Positions 1 through 38,726 of a DNA stretch of 61,194 nt are shown here, one piece after another (position 1 is the first letter of the stretch; every line of letters begins with the position of its first letter). Position numbers and translations under genes: made by a program. The notes beneath the pieces were generated by a model. It was not told the origin of the DNA, made no database searches, and saw only the letters and a list, made by a program, of their open reading frames with translations. The stretch comes from Gammaproteobacteria bacterium (lineage in GTDB: Bacteria; Pseudomonadota; Gammaproteobacteria; DSM-16500): assembly GCA_035478255.1 (NCBI GenBank), contig DATIJV010000108.1, positions 1-61,194 of the forward strand, given 5' to 3'.

Positions 1-140
1 TACTTAATGTCCGGGATCTACTTATCATTTGGGTGGATCCCGGACATTAACTCACTCTAAATTCGCGAAAAGCGCGAATTAAGACTGAGTAAATTCCGGG
101 ATGACGCTCTAATCAGCTTTCGCTTAACTTAATGGCAGTG
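1..140 (-). mobile_element. Window-truncated copy of MITE-like nested-palindrome element (family A)
   Basis: Hand-checked: 1-140 is the exact reverse complement (140/140) of 13881-14020. It ends in the terminal repeat ...aatggcagtg and contains internal hairpins (atgtccgggatc/gatcccggacat; aattcgcg/cgcgaatt). Confidence 0.85.
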
Positions 141-170
141 GGGGAAAGGGGAAGGAGGTATTAAAAATTA
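141..170. repeat. Right-arm fragment of G/A-rich palindromic repeat (family B)
   Basis: ggggaaaggggaaggaggtattaaaaatta is identical (30/30) to 50235-50264. Confidence 0.8.
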
Positions 171-188
171 ATGTGACAGTGTACTAAT

Positions 189-1529
189 ATGCGATATACA
201 GAAATTAAAAAAATTACCCGGCAAATAATAAGTTTTGCTGTTCCATTGCAATTAGGAAGCATGTTTGTTGTTTTTACTGCGCTAATCAATACAAAAATTT
301 TAGGAAAAAATCAGATGGATCTTTATTTATTTGCAATTTTCGCACCAATTTCTTATTTTATTATTGCCTTTCAAGAATCATTTCGAGCTGTTGCAACAGG
401 CATTGCTGCGACCTATCGTACTGCCCCAAATGTGCGTTCTCTCTTTATCTGCCTATTATTAACAGCCGCCATATTTGGATTATTGTTTTATGGAATTTTT
501 TTAGAGTTTAAAAATAACATTATTTCTTTTTTGCAAGTAAACCCTAAGTTTTCCATAAAATTTCAACAGTTTTGTGAGCAAATGATTTTTGTCAATGTGT
601 TATTGATCACTCTGTCAATTATTTTAAATTCATTTATTACCGGACTCGGATTTAAAAAAACAGGATTATTATTTAGTCTAACAGCATCATTATTGACATC
701 CTCTTTTTTATATTTCGGGATAGTCTATTTAAAAGAAGATATCCATGCGCTCGTTATTTCATTGCAATTAACAGGAGTTATACTATGCAGTAGTATATTT
801 TATTTTTTATTAAAACAAACTATTTTCCAGATAAAATTTATAAAAATAACCAAAGCAGATTTTTGTATTATCCTGGGATCGATTAAAAAAATATATGTGC
901 CTATTTTTACATCTTATCTAACAATATTTGGCGGATTAATTGCATACAATTCAATTTTAGCCGATTATGGTAATGATGTTTTGTCTGGATATTTTGTTGG
1001 ATATCGATTGCAAGCATTAGTTATTTTGCCCGCAATTAGCATTGGCAGTGCCATGGCTATCCTGGTCAATCATGAAAAAGCAAATAAAGCAAAAAATTTT
1101 TTGACAATCACGTATATTGGAATTATTCTCTCTCTAATTTTTTACATATTAATAGGCGAATGCATTTATTATTTTCGTCATGAATTGATAAATTATTTGG
1201 TTTCATCAGCAGAAATTAAAAAGTCTGCAGATCATTATTTACAATATGTTTCGCGCACTGATTGGTTGTTTGGTCCCATGCTGGTTTTTTTGACCATGCT
1301 AGAGCAGACAGGCTATGGTTTATATGTTTTAATTGCTAATATTTTGTATGTTGGTTTGGTAGCTTCAATCGGTAAATATTTTTCTGTAACACATCACAAT
1401 TACATTTCATTTTATCAAACAATTTTCTACGCAAATTGTATTTTCCCCCTCCTGATTTTCTCGTCATTTTGGTTTTTTAAACGCATTAAGCATAACAGGA
1501 GAAATCTATGTTTATTCCAACAAATTTAG
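189..1529 (+). CDS. MATE/MOP-superfamily efflux transporter (polytopic membrane protein)
   Basis: 446-aa ORF, hydrophobic throughout (about 12 predicted TM stretches). The N-terminus 'ISFAVPLQLGSMFVVFTALINTKILGK' resembles MATE N-termini. Its 3' end overlaps the next gene. Confidence 0.7.
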   Translation: MRYTEIKKITRQIISFAVPLQLGSMFVVFTALINTKILGKNQMDLYLFAIFAPISYFIIAFQESFRAVATGIAATYRTAPNVRSLFICLLLTAAIFGLLFYGIFLEFKNNIISFLQVNPKFSIKFQQFCEQMIFVNVLLITLSIILNSFITGLGFKKTGLLFSLTASLLTSSFLYFGIVYLKEDIHALVISLQLTGVILCSSIFYFLLKQTIFQIKFIKITKADFCIILGSIKKIYVPIFTSYLTIFGGLIAYNSILADYGNDVLSGYFVGYRLQALVILPAISIGSAMAILVNHEKANKAKNFLTITYIGIILSLIFYILIGECIYYFRHELINYLVSSAEIKKSADHYLQYVSRTDWLFGPMLVFLTMLEQTGYGLYVLIANILYVGLVASIGKYFSVTHHNYISFYQTIFYANCIFPLLIFSSFWFFKRIKHNRRNLCLFQQI

Positions 1530-3058
1530 TTGATTATTTAATTCAAGCAGAAAGAAATAATTCGGACAAAATAGCAATTATTTCTGAAAATAAAAAATAT
1601 ACTTATGCTTATTTGCATGACGCCAGTAACCGAATTGCCAATGCCTTAATTGATGCTAAATTATCAAGAGGCGATCGGGTTGTCTTGTGTCTTGATAATT
1701 GTATCGAGACTATTATTTTATTTTGGGCAGTCCTTAAGGCAAATGGAATCGTGACAATTATCAATCCCAGTACTATCTCTCAAAAATTAAGTTATATTAT
1801 TGAAGATTCTGCTGCAAAATTTATTTTTGTCAAAAATAGGGGTTTTTTAAAAACTGAAAAGAATGAATTGCTCTGCCATCCAGAGAAAATTATAGGGGTA
1901 AATGATAATGAAAATAGTAATTATATAACATATAAAACTTTACTCGAGCACTCAAACAATAAATTGCCTTTAAGAAAAGTGATTGATATTGATTTGGCAG
2001 TCATTGTTTATACTTCTGGATCAACAGGCGTTCCAAAAGGCGTTATGCTAACTCACCGTAATATGTTGACGGCATCAATTTCTATTAATACTTATTTGAA
2101 ATTACAAGCAGAAGACGTATTGATATCTGCTTTACCTCTTTCATTTGATTATGGTTTGTATCAGATGATATTAACCATTTTAAATGGCGCAAGCTTAGTG
2201 TTAGAAAAAGATTTTACATGGCCAATTCAATTCATTAAACGTATTTCTGAAGAAAGAGCGACAATTTTTCCCGGGGTACCTACCATGTTTTCTATTTTGG
2301 CAAATCATGTGTCGAAAATTTCATATGAATTAAATTCAATACGTAGCGTAACGAATACCGGCGCTGCGCTTTTAGTACGGCATATTCATATTATTGAAAA
2401 ATTATTTCCACAGGCAGAGATTTTTTCCATGTATGGTTTGACTGAATGCAAACGCTGTACTTATTTGCCGCCAGAAGATATTTATCGAAAACCGGAAAGT
2501 GTGGGAATCGCAATTCCAAACACTGAAATGTGGATTGTCGATGAAGATGGAAATTCTGTGCCGTCAGGACAAGTCGGGCAATTGGTGATTCGCGGAGCAA
2601 CAGTTATGCAGGGATATTGGAACAAACCATTTGAATCAAACAAAGTGCTAAAAGAGGGTGTATTACCTGGTGAAAAAATTCTTTATACAGGTGACTTCGG
2701 GTATTTGGATGTTGAGGGATATTTTTATTATCACGGCAGAATGGATGAAACGATAAAAAGATTGGGAGAAAAAGTCAGTTTAAAAGAAATAGAAAATACT
2801 ATTTATCTTTTACCTGAAGTCAATGAAGTCGCTGTTATTGATGTGCCGGATGAAATAATGGGAACGTCTATTATCGTATTTGTCGGATCAAACAATTCAG
2901 TCGAAACAATGAGAGATAAAATAATTAACTATTGCAAGAGTACATTGCCTCGGACACATTGGCCGAAAACCGTGTTTGTGATGAATGAATTGCCAAGAAA
3001 CATTAATGGAAAATTTGATAAGGTATTTTTGAAAAATCAGCTTAACGAAACATCATAA
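1508..3058 (+). CDS. AMP-dependent synthetase/ligase (acyl-CoA/acyl-AMP ligase family)
   Basis: Motifs 'YTSGSTGVPKGV' (A3/P-loop-like), 'SFDYGLYQ', 'MYGLTEC', 'YTGDFGYLD', 'GRMDETIKRLGEKVSLKEIE'. aggag RBS upstream. The start overlaps the MATE gene by 22 nt. Confidence 0.9.
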   Translation: MFIPTNLVDYLIQAERNNSDKIAIISENKKYTYAYLHDASNRIANALIDAKLSRGDRVVLCLDNCIETIILFWAVLKANGIVTIINPSTISQKLSYIIEDSAAKFIFVKNRGFLKTEKNELLCHPEKIIGVNDNENSNYITYKTLLEHSNNKLPLRKVIDIDLAVIVYTSGSTGVPKGVMLTHRNMLTASISINTYLKLQAEDVLISALPLSFDYGLYQMILTILNGASLVLEKDFTWPIQFIKRISEERATIFPGVPTMFSILANHVSKISYELNSIRSVTNTGAALLVRHIHIIEKLFPQAEIFSMYGLTECKRCTYLPPEDIYRKPESVGIAIPNTEMWIVDEDGNSVPSGQVGQLVIRGATVMQGYWNKPFESNKVLKEGVLPGEKILYTGDFGYLDVEGYFYYHGRMDETIKRLGEKVSLKEIENTIYLLPEVNEVAVIDVPDEIMGTSIIVFVGSNNSVETMRDKIINYCKSTLPRTHWPKTVFVMNELPRNINGKFDKVFLKNQLNETS

Positions 3059-3079
3059 AAAATCGAAAAGGAAATAGAA

Positions 3080-4102
3080 ATGCGTTTGTTTCTGGGAATT
3101 TTAAGTTTGTTAGCGATTATTATCGCTATAAAATTATTTTGTTTTCACCGAATGAATACAAGCAAAAAAGATTCTCTCGTTTCTACTGTTGATGTTACTT
3201 ACGTTAAGCCCTTGCGCATTCAAAAATATATTTCTGCCAATGGAATGATAAAATCTCCTTTATCGGTTGATATTGTGTCAGATGTTTCTGGAAAAATTTT
3301 AAAAGTCTTGTTTGAGTCAGGGCAGAAAGTTCAGGCCGGTGATGTTCTTCTCATATTAGACCATGATATAATTTCAGCTGAAATTGAACAAGCCGAAGCA
3401 AAATATGCTTATCAAAGACGAAATTATCAGCGATTTTTAGAGTTATCCAAACATGGACTGATATCTAAAGATAATATTGATAACCTCAAATCTCAGCTCG
3501 ATCAAGAGCTCGCACAAATACACAGTTTAAATGCAGAGCTTGAAAAAAGAATGATTCGCGCTCCTTTTGCTGGAACGCTTGGGATCAGTAATGTTGTGAT
3601 AGGTCAATATATTCAACCGGCAGAAAAAATAGTCAACTTACAAAATACTGAATCACTTATGCTGGATTTGCTAGTGCCTGCGCAATATTTTAATACTATA
3701 GCTTTAGGCCAATTTGTCAGTATAGAAAAAATTGAAAATAAATGCGGTAAAGTCGAAGCTATTGATACAAAAATAGATTCACATACACACAGCTTAATGG
3801 TTCGTGTTCAAATAAAAAATTGTCACACTGCTTCAATTACAGGCGCATTTGTTTCTGCTTTTATTTTTACTTCTAGTGATAATTTCCTTTCCGTGCCTGC
3901 CACAGCTTTAAATTATTCTCTCGATGGTACATCTATTTTTACAGTGCGCGGCGATATAGCACAACAAATTCCAGTCGATGCGGATATCAGTAATGATGTG
4001 GCAATTATTAAGCAGGGAAATTTGCATGCAGGGGATTTGGTAATAAGTGTTGGTCAGGAAAAAATATTTGATGGTCAAAAAATTAAAATTCAACAGGGAT
4101 AA
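3080..4102 (+). CDS. RND efflux periplasmic adaptor (membrane fusion protein, HlyD/AcrA family)
   Basis: N-terminal TM anchor, a coiled-coil hairpin region (AEIEQAEAKYAYQRRNYQRF...LKSQLDQELAQIHSLNAELEK) and 'IRAPFAGTLG', typical of MFPs. Immediately precedes the RND pump gene. Confidence 0.85.
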   Translation: MRLFLGILSLLAIIIAIKLFCFHRMNTSKKDSLVSTVDVTYVKPLRIQKYISANGMIKSPLSVDIVSDVSGKILKVLFESGQKVQAGDVLLILDHDIISAEIEQAEAKYAYQRRNYQRFLELSKHGLISKDNIDNLKSQLDQELAQIHSLNAELEKRMIRAPFAGTLGISNVVIGQYIQPAEKIVNLQNTESLMLDLLVPAQYFNTIALGQFVSIEKIENKCGKVEAIDTKIDSHTHSLMVRVQIKNCHTASITGAFVSAFIFTSSDNFLSVPATALNYSLDGTSIFTVRGDIAQQIPVDADISNDVAIIKQGNLHAGDLVISVGQEKIFDGQKIKIQQG

Positions 4103-4106
4103 ATAA

Positions 4107-7100
4107 ATGAATTGGACAAGTTATTTTATAAAAAAACCCATATTATCCTTATCTCTATGCATTTTTATTTTGTTTTTTGGCGGGATGGCATTCTATCAAT
4201 TACCCTTTCGACTTGTTCCTAAAATCACTATGCCCATCATTGATGTTGAAACTGAATATGCTGGCGCATCAGCAGAAACGATACAAAGTACTTTGACAAA
4301 TGTATTGCAAAATACTTTTTTTGATTTACAAGGTATCGATTATATTCAATCCAGCAGCTCATTTGGAAAAAGTGATATCCAGATTCATTTTAAACTGGGT
4401 TGCAATGACCAGCTTCTTCTCAATAATGTTATGAATAAAATTCATTCTGTCAAACAGTTATTGCCAAAAGAAAGCGGCGATTCTATTGTCAAGAAATTAT
4501 CAGGAGATGATAAACCTGCTTTTATCATTGCATTTATGGGCCGCTCACTTTCAAATTTGGAAATCAATGATTATATCAAGCGCATGATAAAACCACGTAT
4601 CGAATTAATTCCTGATATTGCGGAAGTTGAAGTGATGGGGGAATCACCGGCAATGCGGATTTGGCTTGATCCCCATCGGTTAGATGAAAATTTTTTAACG
4701 CCGATGGACGTAGCAGAAAGTTTAAAAAATCAGAACATCACATCAAGCATTGGCATTCAAAAAACTGGCAGCACACAGTTTTTGCTCGATGCAAATAGTG
4801 CATTATTATCAGAACAGCAATTTAACCAAATCATCGTTAAATCATTAGGTGATAACGTACTTCGTCTCAAGGATATCGGGCATGCGAGTCTTGGGCCTGA
4901 TGGTAATAACATTACAACGATAGTGAATGGCACGCCTGCTACGATGGTGTTTGTAAAATTACTTCCAGAAGCCAACCCATTCGCAGTATCTAAAAAAATG
5001 AATGCCAGTTTGTCAGAGATCGAGAAAATTTTGCCAAAAAATATTCGCGCATCGGTGGTGTATGATACAAGCCGCTACATCAAATTAGCATTGTCTGATT
5101 TGACTAAAACAATTTTTATGACTTTTTTCATCATAATTGCAGTGGTTTTACTATTTCTTGGAAGTTTACGCGCAGCACTCATTCCAATTGTTGCCATACC
5201 ATTATCAATTATTGGTATGGGTTGGATCTTATGGTTGGGAAACGCATCGATTAATACATTGACTTTGCTTGCCATGGTGATTGCAATTGGTTTGGTAGTT
5301 GATGATGCGATTGTGGTCCTTGAAAATATATACCGATACCTTGAAAAGGGGATGGGAAGCAACACAGCTGCGCTAAGAGGTATAGAAGAAATGATAATAC
5401 CAGTGATCAGTATGAGCATTCTTCTTTCTGTTGCTTATTTGCCAATAATTTTTATCGGTGGATTAACAGGGAAAATTTTTAGTGAATTTGCTTTAGCATT
5501 GGCTGCTTCAGTTTTAATTTCTTGTATCGTCTCGATTATATTAACGCCCATGATGTGCTCTAAATTATTATTTTATCATAACAATCATTTTAATGAAAAA
5601 CTTATGAAAATTTTTAACTGGATGAAAGAAAGATATCAAGTAATCCTGATGCGTGTGTTAAGTTTCCGTGATGGGCATCTACTGGTAGGTCTCTTTTTTA
5701 TAATTTTATTATTAAGCGGATTATTATATTGCTCACTCCCCAAAGAACTTGCTTCTCGTGAAGATCAGGGTTTTTTGCAAATATTAGGTAAAGCACCGGC
5801 TTCTACTACTGATGCTTATTTAAAAAAATATACCAATCAATTAAATTCAATTTATCAAAAAAATTCGGAAATTGATCGATATATTTATATTAATAATGTG
5901 CCAGAAGAACATCAATTCTTATCATTTATTACACTCAAGCCAGAAAATCAGAGAAAACATTCAGCTAGAGAATTACGTTTAACAATACAGCAGCAATTGG
6001 ATGAAATTACTGGAATCAATGGAACAGTGATTGAGCCTCCTGCTTTGCCAGTGAGTGGCAGTATGCCAATAGAATTTATTTTAAAAAGTGAAATGGATTA
6101 TGGAAAATTATATCAATTAAGTGATAATTTAAAATTGCAAGCCATGAAGTCAGGAAAATTTTTATTTCTTGAGCAAGATGTGCATTTTGAGAAACCCCAA
6201 TATAATTTGAATATTGATAGAAATATAGCGGCGAATTTTGGAATCAATATCAATGATATTACCAATAATTTAAATTTAATGTTGGGCGATACTAAAATTC
6301 AGCAATTTACTATGCGAGGTGAAAATTATCCTGTTATTTTGCACATTACAAATGAGGCTGATGCTATTAACAAAATATATTTAAGAAATCAATCTGGAAA
6401 TATTGTCCCTTTAATTTCATTGATTGATATAAAAAAATCAATTAAAGCAGATTATTTAAATCAATTTCAAAAAATGCAATCGATTACGCTAAGCGGAGTT
6501 ATGCGTCCTGGATTGAGTGTGTCAGATGGATTAAATACCTTACAAAATGCGTTAAAAAAACTTTCAGATAATAACCATGTTTTAATTGATTATTCAGGAG
6601 AATCACGCGAATTAATCAAAGAAGTCAATCAGGGGTGGATTTTGTTTTTAGCAGCGTTTGTATTGATATATCTATTGCTAGCAATATTGTTTGAAAGTTT
6701 TATTTTGCCAATAATTGTTTTGTTTTCTTGCTTGCCCGGCGCTTTTTTTTCTGTACTATTTTCATTATATTTTACAAATTCCAGCATAAATCTTTATACA
6801 GAAATTGGCATGCTCACTTTAATGGGGTTAATTTCCAAGCATGGCATATTAATTATTCAATTTGCAGAAAAAATCCGACAAGACAAGAATATTTCACATC
6901 GTGAAGCAATACTAGAATCAGCCGCATTGAGGTTGCGTCCAATCATGATGACAACAGCAGCTATGTTTTTTTCAGGGTTACCATTAATCTTTTCATCCGG
7001 TGTTGGCTCTAAAAGTCATTTTGATTTAGGAATTGTGATTGTGTCAGGTATATCGATAGGAACTTTATTTGCTTTAATTTTAGTGCCATTTTTTTATTGT

Positions 7101-7157
7101 TTATTTTTTACTTTACGCTCAAAAAAATCAGACGAGGAGAATCCATGTTATATATGA
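4107..7157 (+). CDS. RND efflux permease (AcrB/HAE family inner-membrane pump)
   Basis: 1016 aa with two large periplasmic loops and 12 TM segments. 'AIGLVVDDAIVVLENI' is the conserved RND TM4 motif. Confidence 0.92.
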   Translation: MNWTSYFIKKPILSLSLCIFILFFGGMAFYQLPFRLVPKITMPIIDVETEYAGASAETIQSTLTNVLQNTFFDLQGIDYIQSSSSFGKSDIQIHFKLGCNDQLLLNNVMNKIHSVKQLLPKESGDSIVKKLSGDDKPAFIIAFMGRSLSNLEINDYIKRMIKPRIELIPDIAEVEVMGESPAMRIWLDPHRLDENFLTPMDVAESLKNQNITSSIGIQKTGSTQFLLDANSALLSEQQFNQIIVKSLGDNVLRLKDIGHASLGPDGNNITTIVNGTPATMVFVKLLPEANPFAVSKKMNASLSEIEKILPKNIRASVVYDTSRYIKLALSDLTKTIFMTFFIIIAVVLLFLGSLRAALIPIVAIPLSIIGMGWILWLGNASINTLTLLAMVIAIGLVVDDAIVVLENIYRYLEKGMGSNTAALRGIEEMIIPVISMSILLSVAYLPIIFIGGLTGKIFSEFALALAASVLISCIVSIILTPMMCSKLLFYHNNHFNEKLMKIFNWMKERYQVILMRVLSFRDGHLLVGLFFIILLLSGLLYCSLPKELASREDQGFLQILGKAPASTTDAYLKKYTNQLNSIYQKNSEIDRYIYINNVPEEHQFLSFITLKPENQRKHSARELRLTIQQQLDEITGINGTVIEPPALPVSGSMPIEFILKSEMDYGKLYQLSDNLKLQAMKSGKFLFLEQDVHFEKPQYNLNIDRNIAANFGININDITNNLNLMLGDTKIQQFTMRGENYPVILHITNEADAINKIYLRNQSGNIVPLISLIDIKKSIKADYLNQFQKMQSITLSGVMRPGLSVSDGLNTLQNALKKLSDNNHVLIDYSGESRELIKEVNQGWILFLAAFVLIYLLLAILFESFILPIIVLFSCLPGAFFSVLFSLYFTNSSINLYTEIGMLTLMGLISKHGILIIQFAEKIRQDKNISHREAILESAALRLRPIMMTTAAMFFSGLPLIFSSGVGSKSHFDLGIVIVSGISIGTLFALILVPFFYCLFFTLRSKKSDEENPCYI

Positions 7158-8074
7158 ACGATGCAAAATATTTTATTCCAGAAAAATATTTAACCATAGA
7201 ACAAGCCGGAAAATTACTTAATCTAAACGATATCGAAATAAAAGTTTATAAAAAAATTTATGGCATAGAAAAAATCCCTATTGCTCAGGAAATTCCGTTA
7301 TTGGATTTTATTAAATATCCTGTTGAAGAAATTATCAAAAATAATAACCTTAAAAAAAGCAGCATCAAATATCTGATCCATTGCCACACGGCAAAAGTAA
7401 TCGCACCTTTTGGCGATTCACTGATACGAAAAGTCAAAGAAGACCTGGGATTAAATGATACCATCGCATTTGGAACATCCATCAATAATTGTGCATCTGC
7501 CATTTCTTCCATTGATATGTTATCTCATGTTTTAGCCAGCCATGATGAATGTAATGCGATTATAGTTTGTGGTGATTATGCTTTTACTCATGTGTTGCGA
7601 TACATTCCTAACACTGCTATTTTGGGAGATGCCTCAACAGCTATTTTACTCAGTAAACAAGGAAACAAAAATAAATTGCTATCCAGTTCAATTAAAATTG
7701 CTGGAGAATATGCAGAAGGAATTTGGTTATCAGGCGATAAATTACAATCATTTGAAACTCAATACGTCCATTTATTTTCAAGTGTTATTTTAGATGCAAT
7801 CAATAAAGCAGGTTTAAAAAAAGAGCAAATTAATCTTATTATTCCGCATAACGTCAACATTCCTTCCTGGAAACGTGTGGCAGATAATATCAATATTCCA
7901 TTAGAAAAAATTTATTTAGAAAACATAAAAAAATATTCACATTGTTTTGGTTCAGATACTTTTATTAATTATGTCAGTGCAAAAAATGAAAGTAAGTTTA
8001 ATTCGGGTGATTACTATCTTATGGCAACCGTTGGCTTAGGAGCCACATTTGCTGCTGCTGTTTTTCAACATTAA
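7145..8074 (+). CDS. KAS III (FabH)-like thiolase-fold enzyme, non-canonical third catalytic motif
   Basis: Thiolase-fold length. Nucleophile context 'GTSINNCASAISS', His context 'IIPHNVN', C-terminal 'GLGATFAAAVF'. The start was moved from track position 7097 to the ATG at 7145 (gaggag RBS), overlapping the pump stop by 13 nt. Confidence 0.75.
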   Translation: MLYMNDAKYFIPEKYLTIEQAGKLLNLNDIEIKVYKKIYGIEKIPIAQEIPLLDFIKYPVEEIIKNNNLKKSSIKYLIHCHTAKVIAPFGDSLIRKVKEDLGLNDTIAFGTSINNCASAISSIDMLSHVLASHDECNAIIVCGDYAFTHVLRYIPNTAILGDASTAILLSKQGNKNKLLSSSIKIAGEYAEGIWLSGDKLQSFETQYVHLFSSVILDAINKAGLKKEQINLIIPHNVNIPSWKRVADNINIPLEKIYLENIKKYSHCFGSDTFINYVSAKNESKFNSGDYYLMATVGLGATFAAAVFQH

Positions 8075-8092
8075 AATCAAATAGGATAAGTT

Positions 8093-10579
8093 ATGCAAGA
8101 ATTAAATAAATTATTAAAGATATACAGAGAATCGTTGCTGCATGGCTTTTTAAAATCTGTTGAAAATTTTCCAGAAAGAAATGCATTGTGGGTAGATGAT
8201 CAATATTATACTTATGAAAAATTGTATCTATCTTCATTAAGAATGGCAAAAGTGTTGAGCCATTTCCAAGATGAACGTTGTGTTATTTTAACCTCTCGTC
8301 ATGTTTCAGCTTATTCTGCTGTGATTTCCGTGTTGTTAGCTGGAAAGACATATGTTCCTCTCAATGCGCACTACCTTTCAGAAATTAATTTAACTCTCTT
8401 TAATGCAGTCAATACGAATTTGATCATCATTGATAACAACCCATTAGAAACAATCAAAAATTTCATTTTAAATTGTAAAAAATCACTCATTATTTTTTCT
8501 GAGAAAAAATCTTTTTTAGAAGAGGATTTTCGTTTTTCACATCATCAATTTGTCAATATCTCCGAGAATGCTGGCTTCAATTTTAATTTTAAAAATCTAT
8601 CCCAATATGCTTATCTCATGTTTACATCGGGCAGCACAGGGAACCCTAAAGGCATCAGGGTAAGTCATCAAAACGCACTGACGTATGTGAAAAATATGGT
8701 TAATCGGTCTCAGCCCACAGAAAAAGATAAATTTAGTCAATTAGCTGAATTGACATTTGATTTTTCCGTGCATGATTTATTTGTTGCTTGGTCAGTCGGT
8801 GCGTGTGTTTATTCAATCACGGGCGCTCATTTAATACACTGGAAAAATTTTATGGATAAGCATCAGTTGACTTTTTGGGCATCGGTTCCTTCGTCTGCAA
8901 ATTTTATAAAACAAACTGGCCAGTTGAAAGAAAATATTTTTCCATCGCTGAAGTATAGTATTTTTTGCGGAGAGGTTTTGTCCGCGTCTCTTACAAAATC
9001 CTGGCAAGAGGCAGCCCCTCGATCTGTTATTGATAATTTATATGGGCCGACGGAAGCGGCGGTGGCGTGCACTGGCTATCAATGGAAAATAATGCAAAGA
9101 AATGATGAAATATTACCGATCGGAAAGCCTTTTCCATTGCAGCGCATTAAAATTATTAATAATGAATTTGAAGAAGTCAAGAAAGGTGAAATAGGCGAGC
9201 TGTGTTTATCGGGCCCGCAAGTAGTCGATTCTTATTGGCAAGATTCAAAATTAACTCATGATCGATTTATTTATTTTCCTGACGATGAACAATGCTGGTA
9301 TCGCACGCAGGATTGGGTGAAATGGGATGATACAGTCGGTTTAATTTATCAAGGAAGATTGGATGATCAGCTGAAAATTCGCGGACGATGTGTTTCAAGA
9401 TTGGAAATAGAAATGGCATTGAAAAAAATTGCTGAAACCGATTCTGTTGCAATTTTGCCTGAATCAAATTCCTCTGATGGTTTGGTGATAAATGTCATTG
9501 CATTTGTTAGTCATTCGAAGTTTTCTGCTGAATATATCAAAAAAACCGCCAGAAATATTTTGGCTGACTATATGATACCTGTGCATATCTTTGTTTTGCC
9601 AGAATTACCCAAAAATGCGAATGGAAAACTGGATTACACAGCAATGAGACATATTATGCAAGAAAATGCATTAACGAATTATTATAGTCAACAAAGTCTT
9701 ATTTCAGATCCTGGAATTTATCAATCTTATTTTGAAAATCTTTCAGACGATATCAGTCAATTATGCGAAATTCTGCATGGAATTCTTTTGCATTTTTTAG
9801 ATGCAAAATCATTTAATTGTGATGTCTTGCCTTCCCGGTTAGCCGAAATGGATTGTCGTCAAATTAAGCAAATCATACAAAAAGTTATTGAGTTGGATGA
9901 TACTCTGTTTCATAGTCCTCGAGAAATATCGAAAAAAATATTAAGTTCATGTCGTGATTTTTCACTTTTGCTCTGTTCTGTCCTGAGACATAAAAAAATT
10001 CCTGCACGGTTGCGATTTGGATTTACTGCTTTTTTATTTCCAGGATTTCATCATGACCAAACATTGATGGAATATTGGGATGAAAATAAAAAATCATGGT
10101 GTTTGATAAATGCCCGGATGAATTCTCTATTTATAAAAAAATATCATGTGAAAGCAGAAGACGATTTTTATAATGTTTCGAGGAATTCTTTTTTTGTTGC
10201 GGGTGATGCTTGGCTTCGTTGTCGTTCGGGAACCAAGCAAGCTGATCAATTTGGCACAGGAAATATTAATCGAGTGACGGGCTGGAGATATATTCGTAAT
10301 AAATTGCTGCAGGATTTCGCTGCTTTAAATAAAGTAGAAATGCTGCCTTGGGATTGTTGGGGAGTTATGTTGAGTGGTCCAGAAGATGATTTTATTCATG
10401 ATAGTAAGCAAATGGATCTATTGGATCACATTGCAGAATTGACGTTAAACCCTGATAAAAATCTTGAACAGATAAATCGAATTTACGCGGCGGAAAAAGA
10501 CTTGCAAGTTGGCAGTGAAGTTTTTTGTGATAGCTTGACAGGTGCGGGAAAGTGGGTTGCTGTCACTCGGTCGGAATAA
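8093..10579 (+). CDS. Adenylation (NRPS A-domain/DltA-like) enzyme fused to a C-terminal transglutaminase-like cysteine-protease-fold domain
   Basis: N-terminal ~520 aa: 'FTSGSTGNPKGI', 'TFDFSVHDL' (FDxS), 'NLYGPTEAAV', 'YRTQDW', 'GRLDDQLKIRG', 'PKNANGKLD'. C-terminal ~250 aa: 'SCRDFSLLLCSVLRHKKIPARLRFGF' (transglutaminase-core CRDF...IPAR motif), then 'HHDQTLMEYWDENKKSWCLIN'. No carrier (..DSL..) motif seen. Confidence 0.8.
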   Translation: MQELNKLLKIYRESLLHGFLKSVENFPERNALWVDDQYYTYEKLYLSSLRMAKVLSHFQDERCVILTSRHVSAYSAVISVLLAGKTYVPLNAHYLSEINLTLFNAVNTNLIIIDNNPLETIKNFILNCKKSLIIFSEKKSFLEEDFRFSHHQFVNISENAGFNFNFKNLSQYAYLMFTSGSTGNPKGIRVSHQNALTYVKNMVNRSQPTEKDKFSQLAELTFDFSVHDLFVAWSVGACVYSITGAHLIHWKNFMDKHQLTFWASVPSSANFIKQTGQLKENIFPSLKYSIFCGEVLSASLTKSWQEAAPRSVIDNLYGPTEAAVACTGYQWKIMQRNDEILPIGKPFPLQRIKIINNEFEEVKKGEIGELCLSGPQVVDSYWQDSKLTHDRFIYFPDDEQCWYRTQDWVKWDDTVGLIYQGRLDDQLKIRGRCVSRLEIEMALKKIAETDSVAILPESNSSDGLVINVIAFVSHSKFSAEYIKKTARNILADYMIPVHIFVLPELPKNANGKLDYTAMRHIMQENALTNYYSQQSLISDPGIYQSYFENLSDDISQLCEILHGILLHFLDAKSFNCDVLPSRLAEMDCRQIKQIIQKVIELDDTLFHSPREISKKILSSCRDFSLLLCSVLRHKKIPARLRFGFTAFLFPGFHHDQTLMEYWDENKKSWCLINARMNSLFIKKYHVKAEDDFYNVSRNSFFVAGDAWLRCRSGTKQADQFGTGNINRVTGWRYIRNKLLQDFAALNKVEMLPWDCWGVMLSGPEDDFIHDSKQMDLLDHIAELTLNPDKNLEQINRIYAAEKDLQVGSEVFCDSLTGAGKWVAVTRSE

Positions 10580-10599
10580 TTTTACTTCTTTATTTTAAG

Positions 10600-10655
10600 A
10601 AAAAATTAAAAATTCGTCATTGCGGACCTGCAAAAAGCGCAGGTTTGCAATGACG
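10600..10655 (-). terminator. Rho-independent terminator downstream of ppiB
   Basis: Imperfect ~16-bp stem cgtcattgcggacctgc / gcaggtttgcaatgacg (10615-10655). On the minus strand it is followed by aatttttaatttttt. It lies between convergent genes. Confidence 0.55.
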
Positions 10656-10663
10656 GACTTCAA

Positions 10664-11185
10664 TTACGCGCCAGTGACGATGTCTGATGTTTCCGCATTC
10701 ACCACAACTTTCTCAATAATCACATCATCCACTGGTACATCCTGGTGGCCTGCTTTCCGCGTCGTCGAAACTATTTTGATTTTATCTACTACTTCCATCC
10801 CTGCAATCACTTTCCCAAACACACAATAACCCCAGCCTTCCATCGTTTTAGATTTAAAGTTTAAAAAGGCATTATCTGCGACATTAATAAAAAATTGTGA
10901 AGTAGCAGAATGAGGGTCAGCAGTCCGCGCCATTGCAATGGTATATCGCTTGTTAGTCCCGCCTTTATCTGCTTCATTTTCAATAGCCGCAGAAGATTTT
11001 TTTTGTTGCATATGGGGCCCAAAACCCCCTCCTTGGATCATAAACCCATTGATAATTCGATGAAAAATCGTATTATCATAAAAACCGTTTTTGGCAAGCG
11101 TTAAAAAATTTTTCGCGGTAGCCGGAGTATTTTCAAAATCCAACTCAATCGAAATATCTCCATAATTTGTTTGTAATATAATCAT
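10664..11185 (-). CDS. ppiB: Peptidyl-prolyl cis-trans isomerase B (cyclophilin type)
   Basis: '[15 protein letters not shown]', '[22 protein letters not shown]', 'GYCVFGKV' are cyclophilin signatures. Confidence 0.95.
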
Positions 11186-11268
11186 TTATCATGCCTCTTA
11201 AGTAAACCAGCAAAAATGCATTTCTTACTCTATAATAAAGGTGTTGCAAGTGCTCAATTAAATCGAGG

Positions 11269-13308
11269 ATGTCAGTAATGCTCGAATATTTGATTCGACA
11301 ATCCAAAAAAATAGTCGTGACCTTAAAGTTCAGTATCCTCGCCATATTTGTGACGCTATTTGTGTTGTCTATGTTAACACTTATCGCTATTACTCACATC
11401 AGATTTACGCGCAGCATGGAAGACTTTTCATTTGGTTTAATGAAGCAGGCTTCTTATACGGCATTCACTCAAATTCAGAATGAATTAAAAAATGCTGAAA
11501 TTGAAAGTCATGCGCTTGCCGAGCTTATAAAATTAGACGTGCTCGATTCAACCAGTGAAGTGGAAACTTATATTCAGAGTCTCATGAGAAATGAAATCGA
11601 TTTATTTCCCAGTGTGCAATCAATTGTTTGGGCTGACACCGCTGGTCATTATGTTTCTGTAGAGAAAACAGATGATGGCAAGCTTCATTCAGAGATTGTC
11701 CAATACAATCCAGATAACCCAAGTTATGATCCACGTTTACGGCCTTGGTATATTATCGCTAAAAATGAAAAAAAACCTGTGTGGATGGGAATTTACGCAT
11801 ACGAGATGACAAAATATAGGGGAACCAGTGTAGCGACACCTGTTTATAAAAATGATAATACCTTGCTAGGTGTCGTAAATTTAAGAGTTCGACTGGATAA
11901 TATGCGTGATCTGGTTGAGCAAACTCAGGTGAGTGCGCACAGCATTACATTTATAGTCTCCTCAGATGGGCAATTGATTGCTTTTCCGAATCTTGTTCAA
12001 TATAATCAATCGGCATTGTTAAACATAAAAAATTTAGAAAAATCTCCCTGGATTGCAGAATCATTTGATATATACAACAAAACTCACAGCGCAGAATTTA
12101 TTTATGAATATAACAAAAAAGATTATCTCGCATCTTATTTGCCTCTCACTTCTTTTGGCAGTAATAATCACTGGATCATAGGAGTCGTATCTCCCACTGA
12201 AGATTTTATGAGTGATGTTTACAAAACACATTTGCTCACATTATTAATCAATTTAACTATTTTAATTTTTGGTATCACTGCAGTTTCTATTTTAATTTCT
12301 CGTGTTGTGCATCCGCTGAATGAAATTACCAAAGAAATTCGTCGTATCAGAGATTTTGTTTTAACAGATGAGAAGCCAATTGTGTCACGTATTCTTGAAA
12401 TTAGTTATATAGCTGAAGCACTTTATTCAATGAAAAAAGGATTAAAAACATTTCAACGTTATGTTCCATCTGCATTGGTTCGACAATTGATTGAGACTGG
12501 CGAAGATGCACGAATTGGCGGAATAAAAAAACCGCTAGCGATTTTATTTTCTGATATTAAAGATTTTACTTCGCTTGCAGAAAAAATGGATCCTGAAAAA
12601 TTATCTCCTCATCTTTGCGATTATTTCGATGAATTATCGCAAGTCATAGTGATGAATCACGGCACGATTGATAAATACATGGGCGATGCCATCATGGCAT
12701 TTTGGGGGGCGCCATCGATTATCGAACAACCTTCATTGTATGCGGCAAAGGCGGCATTGCGCTGTTTGAATCTTTCTGAAGAATTAAATGAAACATGGCA
12801 AGAACAAGGCAAGCCTCTTTTGCACACTCGAATTGGAATTCATTTCGGCCAAGCGATTGTCGGAAATTTTGGATCGTCAGAACGAATTAGTTACACGGCG
12901 ATTGGTGATGCAATTAATATCGCTAGTCGTTTGGAAGGCATCAATAAAATTTATGGCACTCAAATTATCGTGAGTGATGTGGTTTATCATCAAATAAAGA
13001 ATGATTTTGTTTTGCGAATGTTGGACTGTATCACAGTAAAAGGGAGAAATGAGGCGCATTATATTTATGAGCTGGTTGCAGAAACCTACATGGAAATAAC
13101 TTATGATTTTGAAAAATATACGATGAATTTTGCGAAAGGGTTTGCTGCCTATCAAAAAAGACAATGGGATGAGGCTATTTCTTTCTTTGTAGAATGCTTA
13201 AAAATCTATCCAGCAGATACGGTAGCAGGGGTATTGATTAAACGATGTGAACACTTTAAGTCAGAGCCGCCTGAAGCAGATTGGAGTGGTATTTGGAAGT
13301 TAGAGTAA
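11269..13308 (+). CDS. Membrane sensor class III adenylate/guanylate cyclase (Cache-like periplasmic domain, HAMP, cyclase, C-terminal TPR-like tail)
   Basis: Two TM segments flank a ~270-aa extracytoplasmic domain. Cyclase motifs 'ILFSDIKDFTSLAE', 'KYMGDAIMAFWGAP', 'RIGIHFGQAIVGNFGS', 'YTAIGDAINIASRLEG'. Confidence 0.88.
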   Translation: MSVMLEYLIRQSKKIVVTLKFSILAIFVTLFVLSMLTLIAITHIRFTRSMEDFSFGLMKQASYTAFTQIQNELKNAEIESHALAELIKLDVLDSTSEVETYIQSLMRNEIDLFPSVQSIVWADTAGHYVSVEKTDDGKLHSEIVQYNPDNPSYDPRLRPWYIIAKNEKKPVWMGIYAYEMTKYRGTSVATPVYKNDNTLLGVVNLRVRLDNMRDLVEQTQVSAHSITFIVSSDGQLIAFPNLVQYNQSALLNIKNLEKSPWIAESFDIYNKTHSAEFIYEYNKKDYLASYLPLTSFGSNNHWIIGVVSPTEDFMSDVYKTHLLTLLINLTILIFGITAVSILISRVVHPLNEITKEIRRIRDFVLTDEKPIVSRILEISYIAEALYSMKKGLKTFQRYVPSALVRQLIETGEDARIGGIKKPLAILFSDIKDFTSLAEKMDPEKLSPHLCDYFDELSQVIVMNHGTIDKYMGDAIMAFWGAPSIIEQPSLYAAKAALRCLNLSEELNETWQEQGKPLLHTRIGIHFGQAIVGNFGSSERISYTAIGDAINIASRLEGINKIYGTQIIVSDVVYHQIKNDFVLRMLDCITVKGRNEAHYIYELVAETYMEITYDFEKYTMNFAKGFAAYQKRQWDEAISFFVECLKIYPADTVAGVLIKRCEHFKSEPPEADWSGIWKLE

Positions 13309-13427
13309 AAAATCCGCACAGATTTTTCTTCTTAGGTGATTTTCTAGCAAATTTATCCATTCATTAGTAATGTTATAATGTACTTAATAAATTCTTTTCT
13401 ATTGTTTTTATGATCGAGGAACTGGAC

Positions 13428-13697
13428 ATGAAAACACTCTTCGCATTTTTAATCATCATCTTTGGATTTTTATTTTCTGCTTCATGTTTTGCAAGTTGTA
13501 ATAGTTGTAGAGTTCAATCAGATTGTTATTCCTGCTCATCGTCTTACAATACCTGCGGTTCTTGTGGTACAGTCTGTGAGGATTGTGCGTGCAGCAGTTG
13601 TGCTTGTACAGAACCCTCATGCGGAAAAAATCCGTGTTTAAGCAGACGCGCATGCTGTCAAGTGTTTGGTAATGTAGGTGGTTATGACGATTATTAA
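13428..13697 (+). CDS. Small secreted cysteine-rich protein (about 16 Cys after the signal peptide)
   Basis: The track ORF 13410-13697 was trimmed to the ATG at 13428 (gagga RBS). Signal peptide 'MKTLFAFLIIIFGFLFSASCFA', then CxxC-dense sequence 'SCNSCRVQSDCYSCSSSYNTCGSCGTVCEDCACSSCACTEPSCGKNPC...'. Confidence 0.6.
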   Translation: MKTLFAFLIIIFGFLFSASCFASCNSCRVQSDCYSCSSSYNTCGSCGTVCEDCACSSCACTEPSCGKNPCLSRRACCQVFGNVGGYDDY

Positions 13698-13709
13698 AGG
13701 AGTTGTGTG

Positions 13710-13877
13710 ATGAGATTTGTGCAATCTGTATTAGGAGTTTTATTGGCTTCAACTTTTGTGCTGACAGGCTGTAATACGGCAAAAGGTTTTGGAGAGGACA
13801 TGCAGCAAGGCGGTGAGGCAATTCAAAAAGCGGCGCATGATGCGACGACTAATTCTAGTACGCCATCCCACTCCTAA
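13710..13877 (+). CDS. Entericidin EcnA/B-family small lipoprotein (55 aa; below the ORF-track cutoff)
   Basis: Hand translation: MRFVQSVLGVLLASTFVLTGCNTAKGFGEDMQQGGEAIQKAAHDATTNSSTPSHS. It has the lipobox L-T-G-C and the entericidin core 'CNTxxGxGxDxxxxGxxI'. aggag RBS at 13699. Confidence 0.75.
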   Translation: MRFVQSVLGVLLASTFVLTGCNTAKGFGEDMQQGGEAIQKAAHDATTNSSTPSHS

Positions 13878-13880
13878 GTA

Positions 13881-14107
13881 CACTGCCATTAAGTTAAGCG
13901 AAAGCTGATTAGAGCGTCATCCCGGAATTTACTCAGTCTTAATTCGCGCTTTTCGCGAATTTAGAGTGAGTTAATGTCCGGGATCCACCCAAATGATAAG
14001 TAGATCCCGGACATTAAGTAGCGCTAAACTCGCAAAGAGCGCGAATTAAGCGCTACTAAATTCCGGGATGACGCTCTAATCAGCTTTCGCTTAACTTAAT
14101 GGCAGTG
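13881..14107. mobile_element. 227-bp MITE-like element (family A) with 51-bp perfect terminal inverted repeats and an 11-bp target-site duplication
   Basis: TIRs 13881-13931 and 14057-14107 are exact reverse complements (cactgccattaagttaagcgaaagctgattagagcgtcatcccggaattta). The flanks 13870-13880 and 14108-14118 are both actcctaagta. No ORF. A second copy lies at 1-140. Confidence 0.85.
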
Positions 14108-14215
14108 ACTCCTAAGTAGAGGTATACTTCGCGGCTTTCTTCTCCCCTCAAGTAAATTTCAAGGTGCACAACACGAGCTCTTCAGATAAAATACTCTCCC
14201 ATTTTGGAGTTTGAC

Positions 14216-14944
14216 ATGAAGATACTCTGCGTGATCCCTAGCCGCATGGCATCGACCCGCATTAAGCGGAAGCCCTTGCTGTCCATTCAAGGTAAGCCCA
14301 TGATTCAATGGGTGTATGAAAATGCTTCCCGATGCAAAGTGCTGACAGATGTCGTGGTCGCGACAGACAGTGAAGAAATCGCTTCTGTTATTCATCGCAT
14401 AGGCGGCAAAGCCATCATGACTGACCCCGATCTTCCTACTGGCTCTGACCGAGTCGCAGCAGCGGCAAGTCATTATCCTGAAATGGATGTCATCATCAAC
14501 TTGCAAGGGGATGAGCCTTTTATCCGCCCGCGCATGTTAGAACAACTCGTTGCTCCGTATCTCAACGGCGAATCGCCGGAAATGACCACGCTTGCCTATC
14601 CTTTGGATCGAGAAACAGATTACACTCATCCCGGCGCAGTCAAGGTCATTACTGATTTGCAAGGCAATGCGCTTTATTTTTCCCGTGCACCTATTCCTTA
14701 TTTTCGTGTTCCTGGAAATGCTCCAGTTTTTCATCATATGGGTTTATATGCTTTTCGACGGGATTTTCTTTTGACTTACCAAACCCTCTCTCAAACACCG
14801 CTTGAAAAAACAGAATCTCTGGAACAATTACGCGTTCTGGAGCATGGTTACAAAATCCGAGTCTGTTTAACTTCCGATCGAACGCTGGAGATTAATACGC
14901 CCGAAGAATACGAGCTTGCACAGCAGTTTCAATATGTCGATTGA
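14216..14944 (+). CDS. kdsB: 3-deoxy-manno-octulosonate cytidylyltransferase (CMP-KDO synthetase)
   Basis: 'MKILCVIPSRMASTRIKRKPLLSIQGKPMIQWV' parallels the KdsB N-terminus. 'NLQGDEP' motif present. Start moved to the ATG at 14216 (ggag RBS). Confidence 0.93.
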   Translation: MKILCVIPSRMASTRIKRKPLLSIQGKPMIQWVYENASRCKVLTDVVVATDSEEIASVIHRIGGKAIMTDPDLPTGSDRVAAAASHYPEMDVIINLQGDEPFIRPRMLEQLVAPYLNGESPEMTTLAYPLDRETDYTHPGAVKVITDLQGNALYFSRAPIPYFRVPGNAPVFHHMGLYAFRRDFLLTYQTLSQTPLEKTESLEQLRVLEHGYKIRVCLTSDRTLEINTPEEYELAQQFQYVD

Positions 14945-18147: not shown

Positions 18148-18259
18148 ATCTCACTCTCATTCTTGATATGTTTATAGTATCAGTATATTATAATTTTATG
18201 TAAATTTATTGATCATTTCTGCCAAAAAGAGATTAATTTGAAACTATTAGAAAAATACT

Positions 18260-19576: not shown

Positions 19577-19632
19577 TCTATTGTCCTTATTGAAAATAGT
19601 GCGCGGCCATAATTTGAGAGAATGGGGATGAG

Positions 19633-19764
19633 TTAATGATGAAAAGTTGACACTTTAAAAATTCGGAATTTTTTGGGTTTTTTGACATCTATGGTATTTT
19701 TTTTTCTATCTGTTTTTGATTTGTTTTTCATTGAGATTTTCTGAGATTTTTTGATGTTCTGCAT
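19633..19764 (-). CDS. Candidate 43-aa Lys-rich precursor-like peptide between the kinase and rSAM genes (not in the ORF track)
   Basis: Hand translation, checked codon by codon: MQNIKKSQKISMKNKSKTDRKKNTIDVKKPKKFRIFKVSTFHH. aagga RBS about 9 nt upstream. It is the only sizeable same-strand ORF I found in the 263-bp gap. AAA-rich, so it could be compositional noise. Confidence 0.4.
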   Translation of the reverse strand: MQNIKKSQKISMKNKSKTDRKKNTIDVKKPKKFRIFKVSTFHH

Positions 19765-19839
19765 TGTGTGTTATCCTTTTAAAATTTGTTTAATACAAAC
19801 TAATTGATGACACGCTCTAATATTACAAAGCGAAACATT

Positions 19840-38608: not shown

Positions 38609-38726
38609 CAATACGGAAGAAGCCAACTTTTTCTTTTTTTTAAGAAGCAACTTGGCTTATGCAAATCAAATTAATGTTTCGTAAGATGATCTTCTTAGTA
38701 TGTTTATTTTTTATGAAGGAGATCTT

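Follow-up and report, generated by a model that had tools for sequence, protein, structure and literature searches.

Contig DATIJV010000108.1, the whole of which (61,194 nt) constitutes the window analysed here, carries close to its start a block of six + strand genes (positions 189-10579) that encode two export systems, two adenylating enzymes, a 3-ketoacyl-acyl carrier protein synthase III (KAS III)-fold enzyme and a transglutaminase-fold domain (TG), and here we describe this block and the biosynthetic pathway to which it probably belongs. The tabulated open reading frames (ORFs; 189-1529, 1508-3058, 3080-4102, 4107-7157, 7097/7145-8074 and 8093-10579) are joined, in order, by a 22-nt overlap and then by gaps of 21, 4 and 18 nt, with the KAS III start inside the 3' end of the RND gene. 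A first-pass annotation made from the sequence alone had described six packed same-strand genes with these spacings, in exact agreement with the ORF table. The reading frame of KAS III can be traced back to a TTG at 7097, and its orthologues in related loci all begin with MLY(I/M)NDA, which corresponds to an ATG at 7145; because the orthologue N-termini align there, we place the start at 7145, which leaves a 13-nt overlap with the RND gene. Profile hidden Markov model (HMM) searches with Pfam and NCBIfam recovered MatE, AMP-binding plus AMP-binding_C (twice), RND adaptor, ACR_tran and ACP_syn_III_C domains and a weak Transglut_core match, and the domain content anticipated by the first-pass annotation was thereby obtained in full. 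The features of the block are:

189-1529, + strand: MATE-family exporter, 446 aa (PF01554 MatE, E = 7.8e-13; 48.9 bits, cut-off 24.9)
1508-3058, + strand: VinN/AfcQ-type adenylating enzyme, 516 aa (best NCBIfam model TIGR03098; VinN pocket residues)
3080-4102, + strand: RND periplasmic adaptor (membrane-fusion protein), 340 aa (TIGR01730 RND_mfp, 188.5 bits, cut-off 94.9)
4107-7157, + strand: RND inner-membrane pump, 1016 aa (PF00873 ACR_tran, E = 1.7e-229, 764.7 bits)
7145-8074, + strand: KAS III (FabH)-fold enzyme, 309 aa (PF08541; Cys116-His235-His266)
8093-9679, + strand: stand-alone-type amino-acid adenylation (A) enzyme, N-terminal ~529 aa of an 828-aa protein (TIGR01733 and DltA models)
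9680-10579, + strand: transglutaminase-fold domain (TG), C-terminal ~300 aa of the 828-aa protein (weak PF01841 match; AlphaFold2 fold)

The MATE protein and the RND adaptor and pump match their family HMMs above the curated cut-offs, which bears out their assignment as two export systems. No acyl or peptidyl carrier protein (ACP or PCP), condensation domain, thioesterase, outer-membrane channel or regulator was found in the six-gene block by Pfam or NCBIfam, so the earlier statement that such genes are lacking is true of the block itself. The hallmark of a modular non-ribosomal peptide synthetase (NRPS), namely condensation, PCP and thioesterase domains in cis, is also absent, as both adenylating enzymes show AMP-binding and AMP-binding_C only in these searches.

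About 10 related loci were gathered by a genome scan and by looking up the closest A-domain and TG homologues, and the cluster family as listed comprises L001-L003, L005-L010, L085-L089 and L092, mostly labelled as uncultured Coxiellaceae and in two cases as 'Gammaproteobacteria bacterium'. The conserved order is pyridoxal phosphate (PLP)-dependent decarboxylase, ACP, a 289-aa KAS-fold protein, a 234-aa protein, an acyl-CoA dehydrogenase homologue (ACAD), MATE, ligase (the counterpart of 1508-3058), RND adaptor and pump, KAS III, A and TG. The RND pair is absent from L002, L009 and L092, and the A gene from L005, L010 and the closest relative of the window, L086 + L089 (ligase 73% and KAS 70% identity). 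Identity of the window proteins ranges from 31 to 73% within the Coxiellaceae clade and from 31 to 38% for the distant L092, whose compact cluster comprises ACAD, ligase, KAS and an A::TG fusion. MATE orthologues occupy the same position in L001-L003, L085 and L086 (31-50% identity), and the RND pump is 51-62% identical to its orthologues in L001, L003 and L089. Every relative that reaches far enough upstream carries an ACP gene and four more genes before MATE, and the ACAD-MATE junction in the relatives spans 0-25 nt. The six-gene order therefore recurs in about 10 related loci, but as part of a longer cluster, and the interpretation of the block as one co-oriented, tightly coupled unit gains from finding the same synteny in about 10 related metagenome-assembled genomes or contigs. 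Probably, the block represents the rear two-thirds of a longer operon of ~11 genes.

The surroundings of the cluster are also conserved. In the relatives, the gene directly downstream of TG is kdsB (CMP-Kdo synthetase family), encoded on the other strand; the window retains both kdsB (14204-14944, +) and ppiB (-), but in reversed orientation compared with the relatives, an arrangement that a putative local inversion explains. Because the kdsB/ppiB neighbourhood is kept, merely inverted, the cluster occupies a conserved chromosomal locus and not a mobile or repeat-bounded island.

The upstream enzymes are known from the relatives. Their decarboxylase matches BtrK, the L-glutamyl-[BtrI ACP] decarboxylase, with 292 bits (E = 7e-86), compared with 207 bits for the best diaminopimelate decarboxylase, and TIGR03099, the NCBIfam model that fits it best, is the partner of TIGR03098, the model matched by the ligase. 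It also passes the cut-off for LysA, but a housekeeping LysA was rejected on two grounds: the scores for BtrK and TIGR03099 exceed that for LysA, and the gene stands beside the ACP gene even in the distant L009. The ACP gene follows 125-145 nt downstream of the decarboxylase gene and encodes 84-90 aa with an LGLDS phosphopantetheine site. The 289-aa protein has no Pfam match, but its AlphaFold2 model (pLDDT 79) matched the KAS III fold in Foldseek (E ~1e-11, TMq 0.6-0.68), with AbyA1, KAS III, OleA, StlD and ChlB3 among the matches, and it lacks the nucleophile, with FDVGDQG(S/T) at the position of the active-site Cys. Its match to a 303-aa hypothetical protein of Rahnella (see below) was marginal (E = 4e-4, probability 35%) and was not relied on. 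An ACAD-like identity for the 234-aa protein was dropped, given a Pfam ACAD-C match at E = 0.18 and hhalign probabilities of 0.1-0.3 against the ACAD profile and the Rahnella hypothetical protein.

The start of the contig accounts for the position of the block at its edge. Two repeat families, one of which resembles a miniature inverted-repeat transposable element (MITE), and a further inverted repeat flank or adjoin the genes:

1-140, no strand: contig-truncated copy of the palindromic MITE-like element 'MITE A' (100% reverse-complement match to 13881-14020)
141-171, no strand: right arm of palindromic 'repeat B', immediately before the start of MATE (identical to 50235-50265)
10615-10655, no strand: inverted repeat between the convergent A::TG and ppiB genes, possible terminator and 3' end of the unit (read from sequence)
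13881-14107, no strand: full MITE A copy, 227 nt, not adjoining the block (palindrome arms)

The contig starts inside a copy of MITE A, and the assembly breaks there: bases 1-140 are the exact reverse complement (100%) of 13881-14020, within an element (13881-14107) that forms a 227-nt palindrome of two 108-nt arms, 88% complementary, with 11 nt between them. Window positions 110-13935 also occur, with 100% identity, in another public assembly, L004, which breaks at both MITE A copies; given this identity, the two assemblies are not independent. The first-pass annotation had placed the block between two inverted copies of such an element, which does not hold, since one copy is the contig-cut 1-140 and the other lies 3.3 kb past the block, beyond ppiB (10664-11185, -) and a Cache-adenylate-cyclase gene (11269-13308), and the element is itself palindromic. 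The second family, repeat B, is short, palindromic and GGAAGG-rich, and was found at 141-171, 46314-46344, 50110-50165, 50196-50275 (the full copy) and 61143-61194, so that the 3' end of the contig also stops in repeat B.

Two short Logan contigs, L087 (3 kb) and L088, encode an ACP, a 295-aa protein, a 227-aa protein and an ACAD, and their ends likewise lie in repeat B-family repeats. They constitute a distinct orthologue set that is nearest to L086 (47-63% identity), and the window MATE is also nearest to the L086 MATE (50%, vs 31-37% for the others). The noncoding ends of L087 and L088 contain stretches of 20-30 nt that are identical to intergenic repeats of the window (E = 1e-10 to 5e-5), and among 1.68 Mb of fetched loci such sharing with the window was limited to these two. 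Furthermore, the end of L087, 70-130 nt past the ACAD stop, is formed by the left arm of repeat B, and window 141-171 is the corresponding right arm. L087/L088 are thus very probably the missing upstream piece of the window cluster, and the simplest reading of the arrangement would be ACAD, then repeat B with MITE A nested inside, then MATE. In this genome, nested MITE insertions would therefore appear to separate the ACAD gene from the MATE gene, and A and TG appear as one fused gene. The description of the operon as 'carrier-protein-less' was an edge effect: the operon looks carrier-less because the contig breaks in a repeat just upstream of MATE, the relatives encode an ACP upstream, and an ACP is very probably present here too.

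Sequence comparison indicated an amino-acid substrate for the ligase (1508-3058). Among NCBIfam models it fits TIGR03098 best, and in the PDB the top matches are VinN and adenylation domains from NRPSs instead of fatty-acid ligases; FadD13 scored 167 bits, compared with 230-239 bits for the best matches, which are adenylation domains. In the substrate-pocket segment, VinN scored 97.7 bits and the next PDB match 52.8. An ungapped alignment of the pocket pairs SFDYGLY of the ligase with SWDFGLY of VinN, and TECKR is identical. VinN is distinguished by D230, the bulky F231 and S299, and a β13β14 loop that is one residue shorter and carries K330 and R331 (PMC11253843). In the ligase, D214 aligns with VinN D230 (GrsA D235), the Asp that binds the amino group, Y215 and T284 provide bulky residues at the positions of VinN F231 and S299 (GrsA A236 and A301), and the β13β14 loop has a one-residue gap against GrsA and none against VinN, with K315 and R316 present. 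The L092 ligase, which is 38% identical, retains both FDYGLY and TECKR. This protein had been called fatty-acyl-CoA-ligase-like, but it carries every signature of the VinN substrate site, and we predict that it activates an Asp-type amino acid via its side-chain carboxylate and loads a free-standing ACP, as in the VinN-type loading of β-amino acids for macrolactams (PMC11284099) and with the VinN-like enzyme AfcQ in afc (PMC12186527). The acylated amino acid or small lipid previously suggested as the product loses its basis, because gene 2 is an amino-acid:ACP ligase and no lipid-activating enzyme is left to support it.

The KAS III enzyme (7145-8074) belongs to the FabH-like thiolase-fold family by its PF08541 match, as originally proposed, but it lacks the canonical Cys-His-Asn triad of FabH. 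Compared with E. coli FabH (Cys112, His244, Asn274), Cys116 and His235 are kept and the Asn is replaced by His266, and this Cys-His-His triad is shared by the window protein and all orthologues examined (L001-L003 and the distant L092).

The 828-aa protein (8093-10579) combines the second adenylating enzyme with TG. The A domain matched TIGR01733 and DltA models with AlmE as its nearest relative, in line with its earlier classification as an amino-acid-type, DltA-like enzyme, and its PDB matches were AlmE 4oxi (E = 5.5e-78), 8k4r (4e-56) and IdnL7 6akd (6e-49). These are, respectively, a glycine ligase, an adenylation enzyme cross-linked to an ACP, and an enzyme that accepts Gly, Ala or Ser. 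The specificity code DFHA(I/V/F)CL(V/I)AK is conserved and, to our knowledge, matches no known code. Since L005, L010 and L089 lack it, the A enzyme is accessory within the cluster family. Outside the family, A-domain homologues P0019, P0080 and P0006 are fused to an α/β-hydrolase (~765 aa) or to a second AMP-binding unit (1006 aa).

TG, the last 300 aa of the protein, matches Transglut_core weakly (E = 4.7e-4), but its AlphaFold2 model has a mean pLDDT of 94 and matches only transglutaminase cores in the PDB (TM ~0.3), so the fold itself is supported even though the Cys-His-Asp triad of PF01841 is incomplete. Cys620 is invariant across 42 family members, whereas the D-H-W of the wider family is PGFHHDQ in the cluster-linked clade, with Gln656 (Gly in L092) at the canonical His position, His653/His654 just upstream of it and, in the window only, Asn673 in place of the canonical Asp. 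In L001-L003, A and TG are separate genes in different frames with an ATGA overlap; the window has them in one frame, with the ancestral ATG still present at 9656. A full-library search gave one further A::TG fusion, P0263 (794 aa) in L092, which makes a sequencing frameshift an unlikely explanation, although the two identical assemblies of the window do not count as independent evidence on this point. Because the fusion is found in two distant lineages, it is biologically meaningful and ties both activities together; however, TG is also retained in clusters without an A gene (L005, L010, L089). The neighbourhoods of the wider TG family (Streptomyces, Vibrio, Chloroflexi and others) contained none of the cluster genes and offered no functional clue. 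Six TG homologues (P0287, P0306, P0376, P0315, P0286 and P0349) have an intact Cys-His-Asp and N-terminal fusions to a UvrA-like ABC ATPase or a DinB/mycothiol-S-transferase-like domain, which hint at a DNA-damage- or xenobiotic-related role for the wider family.

Together, we consider it reasonably probable that 189-10579 is the distal part of a ~11-gene operon for the synthesis and export of a small β- or γ-amino-acid-derived metabolite, using free-standing enzymes on one ACP and no NRPS or polyketide synthase (PKS). All steps are deduced from homology, and those of the ACP, decarboxylase and ACAD draw on the genes of the relatives and L087. The VinN/AfcQ-type ligase would adenylate the side-chain carboxylate of an Asp-like amino acid and transfer it to the 84-90-aa ACP, where the BtrK/VinO/AfcP-type PLP decarboxylase would strip the α-carboxylate to give β-alanyl-S-ACP or a homologous ω-aminoacyl-S-ACP. 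Where present, the AlmE/VinM/IdnL7-like A enzyme may activate a small α-amino acid and acylate the free amine directly; direct N-aminoacylation of a tethered amine, for which VinM is the precedent, would account for the lack of a carrier domain within this enzyme. The ACAD homologue could desaturate the tethered unit, like BolQ/AfcE, which have been proposed to form dehydro-β-alanine. The Cys-His-His KAS III, probably paired with the Cys-less KAS-fold protein, would then carry out either a Claisen extension or an AfcL-like uptake of the thioester and release onto an amine. In the least certain step, TG may use its invariant Cys for further acyl transfer or deprotection. Finally, MATE and, where present, the RND pair would export the product. 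A dedicated small-molecule pathway with its own exporters, as the first-pass annotation had it, is judged to be supported.

Several observations weigh against this proposal. No homologue of the relatives' upstream proteins (ACP, decarboxylase, dehydrogenase and others) was found anywhere in the 61-kb window, and the link to L087/L088 consists of shared repeats and a matching phylogenetic position, with no sequence join. Exact-sequence look-ups of the window MATE and ligase proteins, which might have linked the window to the samples behind L087 and L088, gave no record. L088 shows no end of a decarboxylase gene within the 171 nt upstream of its ACP gene. The KAS III triad (Cys-His-His) differs both from the Cys-His-Asp of AfcL and from the Cys-His-Asn of FabH; TG lacks the canonical His in all cluster-linked members and in the window also the Asp, and may not be a catalyst; and the 234-aa protein has no Pfam match and no detectable relatives. 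As the family has no fatty-acyl-AMP ligase, VinK acyltransferase, BtrJ ATP-grasp enzyme or PKS, no single known pathway gives its downstream chemistry. Literature searches on the gene combination, on Coxiellaceae biosynthetic clusters and on TIGR03098/TIGR03099 found no description of the cluster, and no characterised member of the family was found, so the first-pass view that this is not a described pathway stands.

Alternatively, A::TG could be a self-contained, carrier-free amide synthetase in which the aminoacyl group passes to a Cys620 thioester and then to an amine. The A::TG fusions in two lineages as distant as the window and P0263 in L092 (31-38% identity) would fit this idea, as would the ATGA coupling of A and TG elsewhere, the invariance of the Cys despite the loss of the Cys-activating His, and the fusion of A-domain relatives to α/β-hydrolase domains. 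However, TG is kept without A in L005, L010 and L089, so that its main role cannot depend on A, and VinM-type enzymes already account for a carrier-free A domain, which leaves this explanation unlikely. In its boldest form, A::TG would be a two-step enzyme in which the aminoacyl-AMP is captured as a thioester on the invariant Cys, an E1-like relay that replaces both carrier and condensation domain, and the product of the cluster would then be a (dehydro-)β-amino-acid metabolite of a class not seen before, made by host-associated Coxiellaceae; we offer this as a speculation with a small chance of being right.

An envelope modification system, in which AlmEFG- or Dlt-like aminoacylation of lipid A, lipopolysaccharide (LPS) or another envelope polymer is coupled to MATE/RND movement of the modified lipid or its precursor, would agree with the A domain being nearest to AlmE (the Vibrio cholerae LPS glycine ligase), with the DltA matches and with kdsB directly downstream in the relatives. 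We regard it as improbable, because the A gene is dispensable (absent from L005, L010 and L089), no AlmG/LpxL-type or DltB/DltD-type transferase is present, and the VinN-like ligase, BtrK-like decarboxylase, ACAD and two KAS III-fold proteins have no role in Alm or Dlt systems; moreover, kdsB is encoded on the other strand and occupies a different position in the window. Similarly doubtful is a decaying remnant in this genome, in which MITEs have cut off the upstream genes, TG is catalytically dead (Gln, Asn) and nothing is produced. The nested repeats lie directly before MATE where the relatives have an ACAD-MATE junction of 0-25 nt, and the Asn at the Asp position is unique to the window, yet the six ORFs are full-length and collinear with their orthologues over 10.4 kb with no frameshifts or stops. 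The His-to-Gln change is common to the whole cluster-linked clade and hence is not decay, Cys620 is invariant, and intergenic MITEs often leave transcription intact. Weakest of all is a truly carrier-less route, in which a fatty-acyl-CoA ligase, an NRPS-like A enzyme and a FabH-like enzyme make an exported N-acyl amino acid, amine or small lipid from CoA- or AMP-activated substrates: it accords with the lack of an ACP or PCP in the 61-kb window and with generic AMP-binding, FabH and exporter domains, but is very improbable given a contig that starts in a repeat, an ACP in all upstream-reaching relatives and a ligase with the VinN pocket (D, Y, T, K-R), no fatty-acid tunnel and the lower FadD13 score (167 vs 230-239 bits).

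The amino-acid-derived metabolite proposed here has clear parallels among known systems. The first-pass annotation had not recognised the gene combination, but the same thiotemplate logic, based on stand-alone enzymes, underlies vicenistatin, fluvirucin, butirosin, closthioamide and AFC-BC11. In afc and the bolagladins, β-alanyl and dehydro-β-alanyl units are made on a carrier protein, and AfcL is a KAS III-like enzyme that catalyses amide-forming chain release (PMC12186527). In the starter-unit pathway of VinN, VinL, VinO and VinM, VinM directly N-aminoacylates a tethered amine (PMC11284099), and papain- or transglutaminase-fold transacylases use thioesters in the andrimid, butirosin and closthioamide pathways (PMC7183216). 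The putative core of ligase, ACP, BtrK-type decarboxylase and ACAD matches both the afc/bolagladin module and the macrolactam starter-unit module.

A close parallel in enzyme types is AFC-BC11 from the Burkholderia cepacia complex (PMC12186527), which also relies on autonomous enzymes around a single carrier with no condensation domains, a VinN-like enzyme that loads L-Asp by its β-carboxylate, a PLP decarboxylase that acts on tethered Asp, an ACAD proposed to form dehydro-β-alanine, and two KAS III-like proteins, one of them for amide-forming release. The fatty-acyl-AMP ligase of that pathway (AfcA, which N-acylates the oligo-β-alanyl chain), its citrate synthase, O-methyltransferase, desaturases and glycosyltransferase-type gene are absent here. 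No AfcA-type third AMP-binding protein was found in any related locus, where the VinN-like ligase and the AlmE/VinM-like A domain are the only ones. Conversely, TG, the 234-aa protein and the MATE/RND exporters of the cluster family have no described afc counterpart. The shared enzyme types all occur in the cluster family, at 25-36% identity to a Burkholderia locus that is possibly afc itself, and the KAS triad differs. This locus (L091, Burkholderia cenocepacia 3.2-Mb replicon NZ_CP091013.1, 3067095-3098258) is unannotated and carries an ACAD, two KAS III proteins, a VinN-like ligase 31% identical to that of the window and a decarboxylase 36% identical to that of L002. An annotated, apparently uncharacterised cluster of the same logic lies on Rahnella aquatilis plasmid pMEM40-1 (L090, CP036488.1 160054-173300), in the order PLP decarboxylase, 303-aa hypothetical protein, KAS III, ligase, carrier protein, two AMP enzymes, VOC protein, ACAD, α/β-hydrolase, second KAS III and second ACAD. 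Its ligase and decarboxylase are 39% and 42% identical, respectively, and TG is absent both there and from the Burkholderia replicon.

Vicenistatin biosynthesis (VinN/L/O/M/K/J; PMC11284099) shares a ligase with D, an aromatic residue, S/T and K-R in a loop of the same length, a free-standing ACP, a PLP decarboxylase that acts on aminoacyl-ACP, and a carrier-free second A enzyme, here resembling VinM/IdnL7. Enzymes of the VinM/IdnL7 type acylate the amine of an aminoacyl-ACP and not a carrier thiol, and in them a conserved Tyr makes contact with the pantoate group. The vicenistatin pathway differs in that the cluster has no VinK acyltransferase, VinJ amidohydrolase or modular PKS, but a KAS III pair, ACAD and TG instead of the PKS, and in that the host is a Coxiellaceae gammaproteobacterium and not an actinomycete. 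The assembly of the butirosin AHBA side chain (BtrI, BtrJ, BtrK, BtrH and BtrG) is similar in that the relatives' decarboxylase is most similar to BtrK and in that an ACP-tethered amino acid is transferred by a Cys-protease-fold enzyme, BtrH, a functional analogue of TG; no sequence or structural match between TG and BtrH was found, the Foldseek matches being transglutaminase cores. Loading here is predicted to be by an adenylate-forming enzyme and not by the ATP-grasp BtrJ, and there is no BtrG, monooxygenase or aminoglycoside acceptor gene. AdmF (andrimid) and CtaG/CtaJ (closthioamide) likewise place a Cys-nucleophile fold in an NRPS-free carrier pathway, where its neighbours are adenylating or ligating enzymes and a decarboxylase for tethered amino acids (PMC7183216). 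Their Cys-His-Asp triads are verified, whereas TG has Gln (Gly in L092) for His and, in the window, Asn for Asp, and the TG family is a distinct clade of ~300 aa with no solved relative beyond the core. AlmEFG, the lipid A glycine modification system of Vibrio cholerae, provides in AlmE the best solved relative of the A domain, which is also stand-alone, but here the A gene is optional, the ACP belongs with the ligase and decarboxylase module and not beside the A gene, and no AlmG-type lipid A aminoacyl transferase was found in the window block or any related locus. Set against these systems, no precedent exists for the Cys-retaining, His-less TG, for its fusion to A in two lineages far apart, for the Cys-His-His KAS III or for the pair of dedicated exporters.

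The remaining features of the window are of secondary interest. The inverted repeat at 10615-10655 was not called by a consensus terminator scan, a promoter and terminator scan of 1-11300 gave signals at or below chance level and is uninformative on operon structure, and Rfam and tRNA scans found no match in or near the block. The block had also been described as visibly more AT-rich than its surroundings, but the bias is mild (1-10579, 33.5% GC; window, 37.7%) and several other stretches of the window are equally low or lower, such as 20-21 kb (27.8%). Besides kdsB and ppiB, the region 10664-14944 holds the Cache-adenylate-cyclase-TPR gene (11269-13308), an entericidin-like ORF and MITE A. 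On the - strand at 16696-21279, the most AT-rich part of the window with the 27.8% GC minimum, a radical-SAM/SPASM gene (18260-19576) is flanked by an APH/choline-kinase-like gene and by a 483-aa ORF that lacks any Pfam match, and this may be a peptide-maturation locus. A tyrosine integrase gene (35530-36780), a YhcG nuclease-family gene and a DUF3631 gene upstream of tRNA-Met (46108-46182) make up a region (35530-46182) that is probably an integrated element.

For genome scanning, the locus is a caution, as a seemingly 'carrier-less' pathway at a contig start proved to be an assembly artefact caused by a MITE. Free-standing thiotemplated pathways, such as afc, closthioamide, the butirosin side chain and the macrolactam starters, have been recognised only recently and are largely missed by NRPS/PKS genome mining. 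The cluster family would contribute new parts to this repertoire, namely a KAS III with a Cys-His-His triad, a KAS III-fold partner that lacks the Cys and a rewired TG that has repeatedly been fused to an adenylation enzyme, and it would extend the same logic to uncultured Coxiellaceae, a mostly host-associated group with almost no known secondary metabolism.

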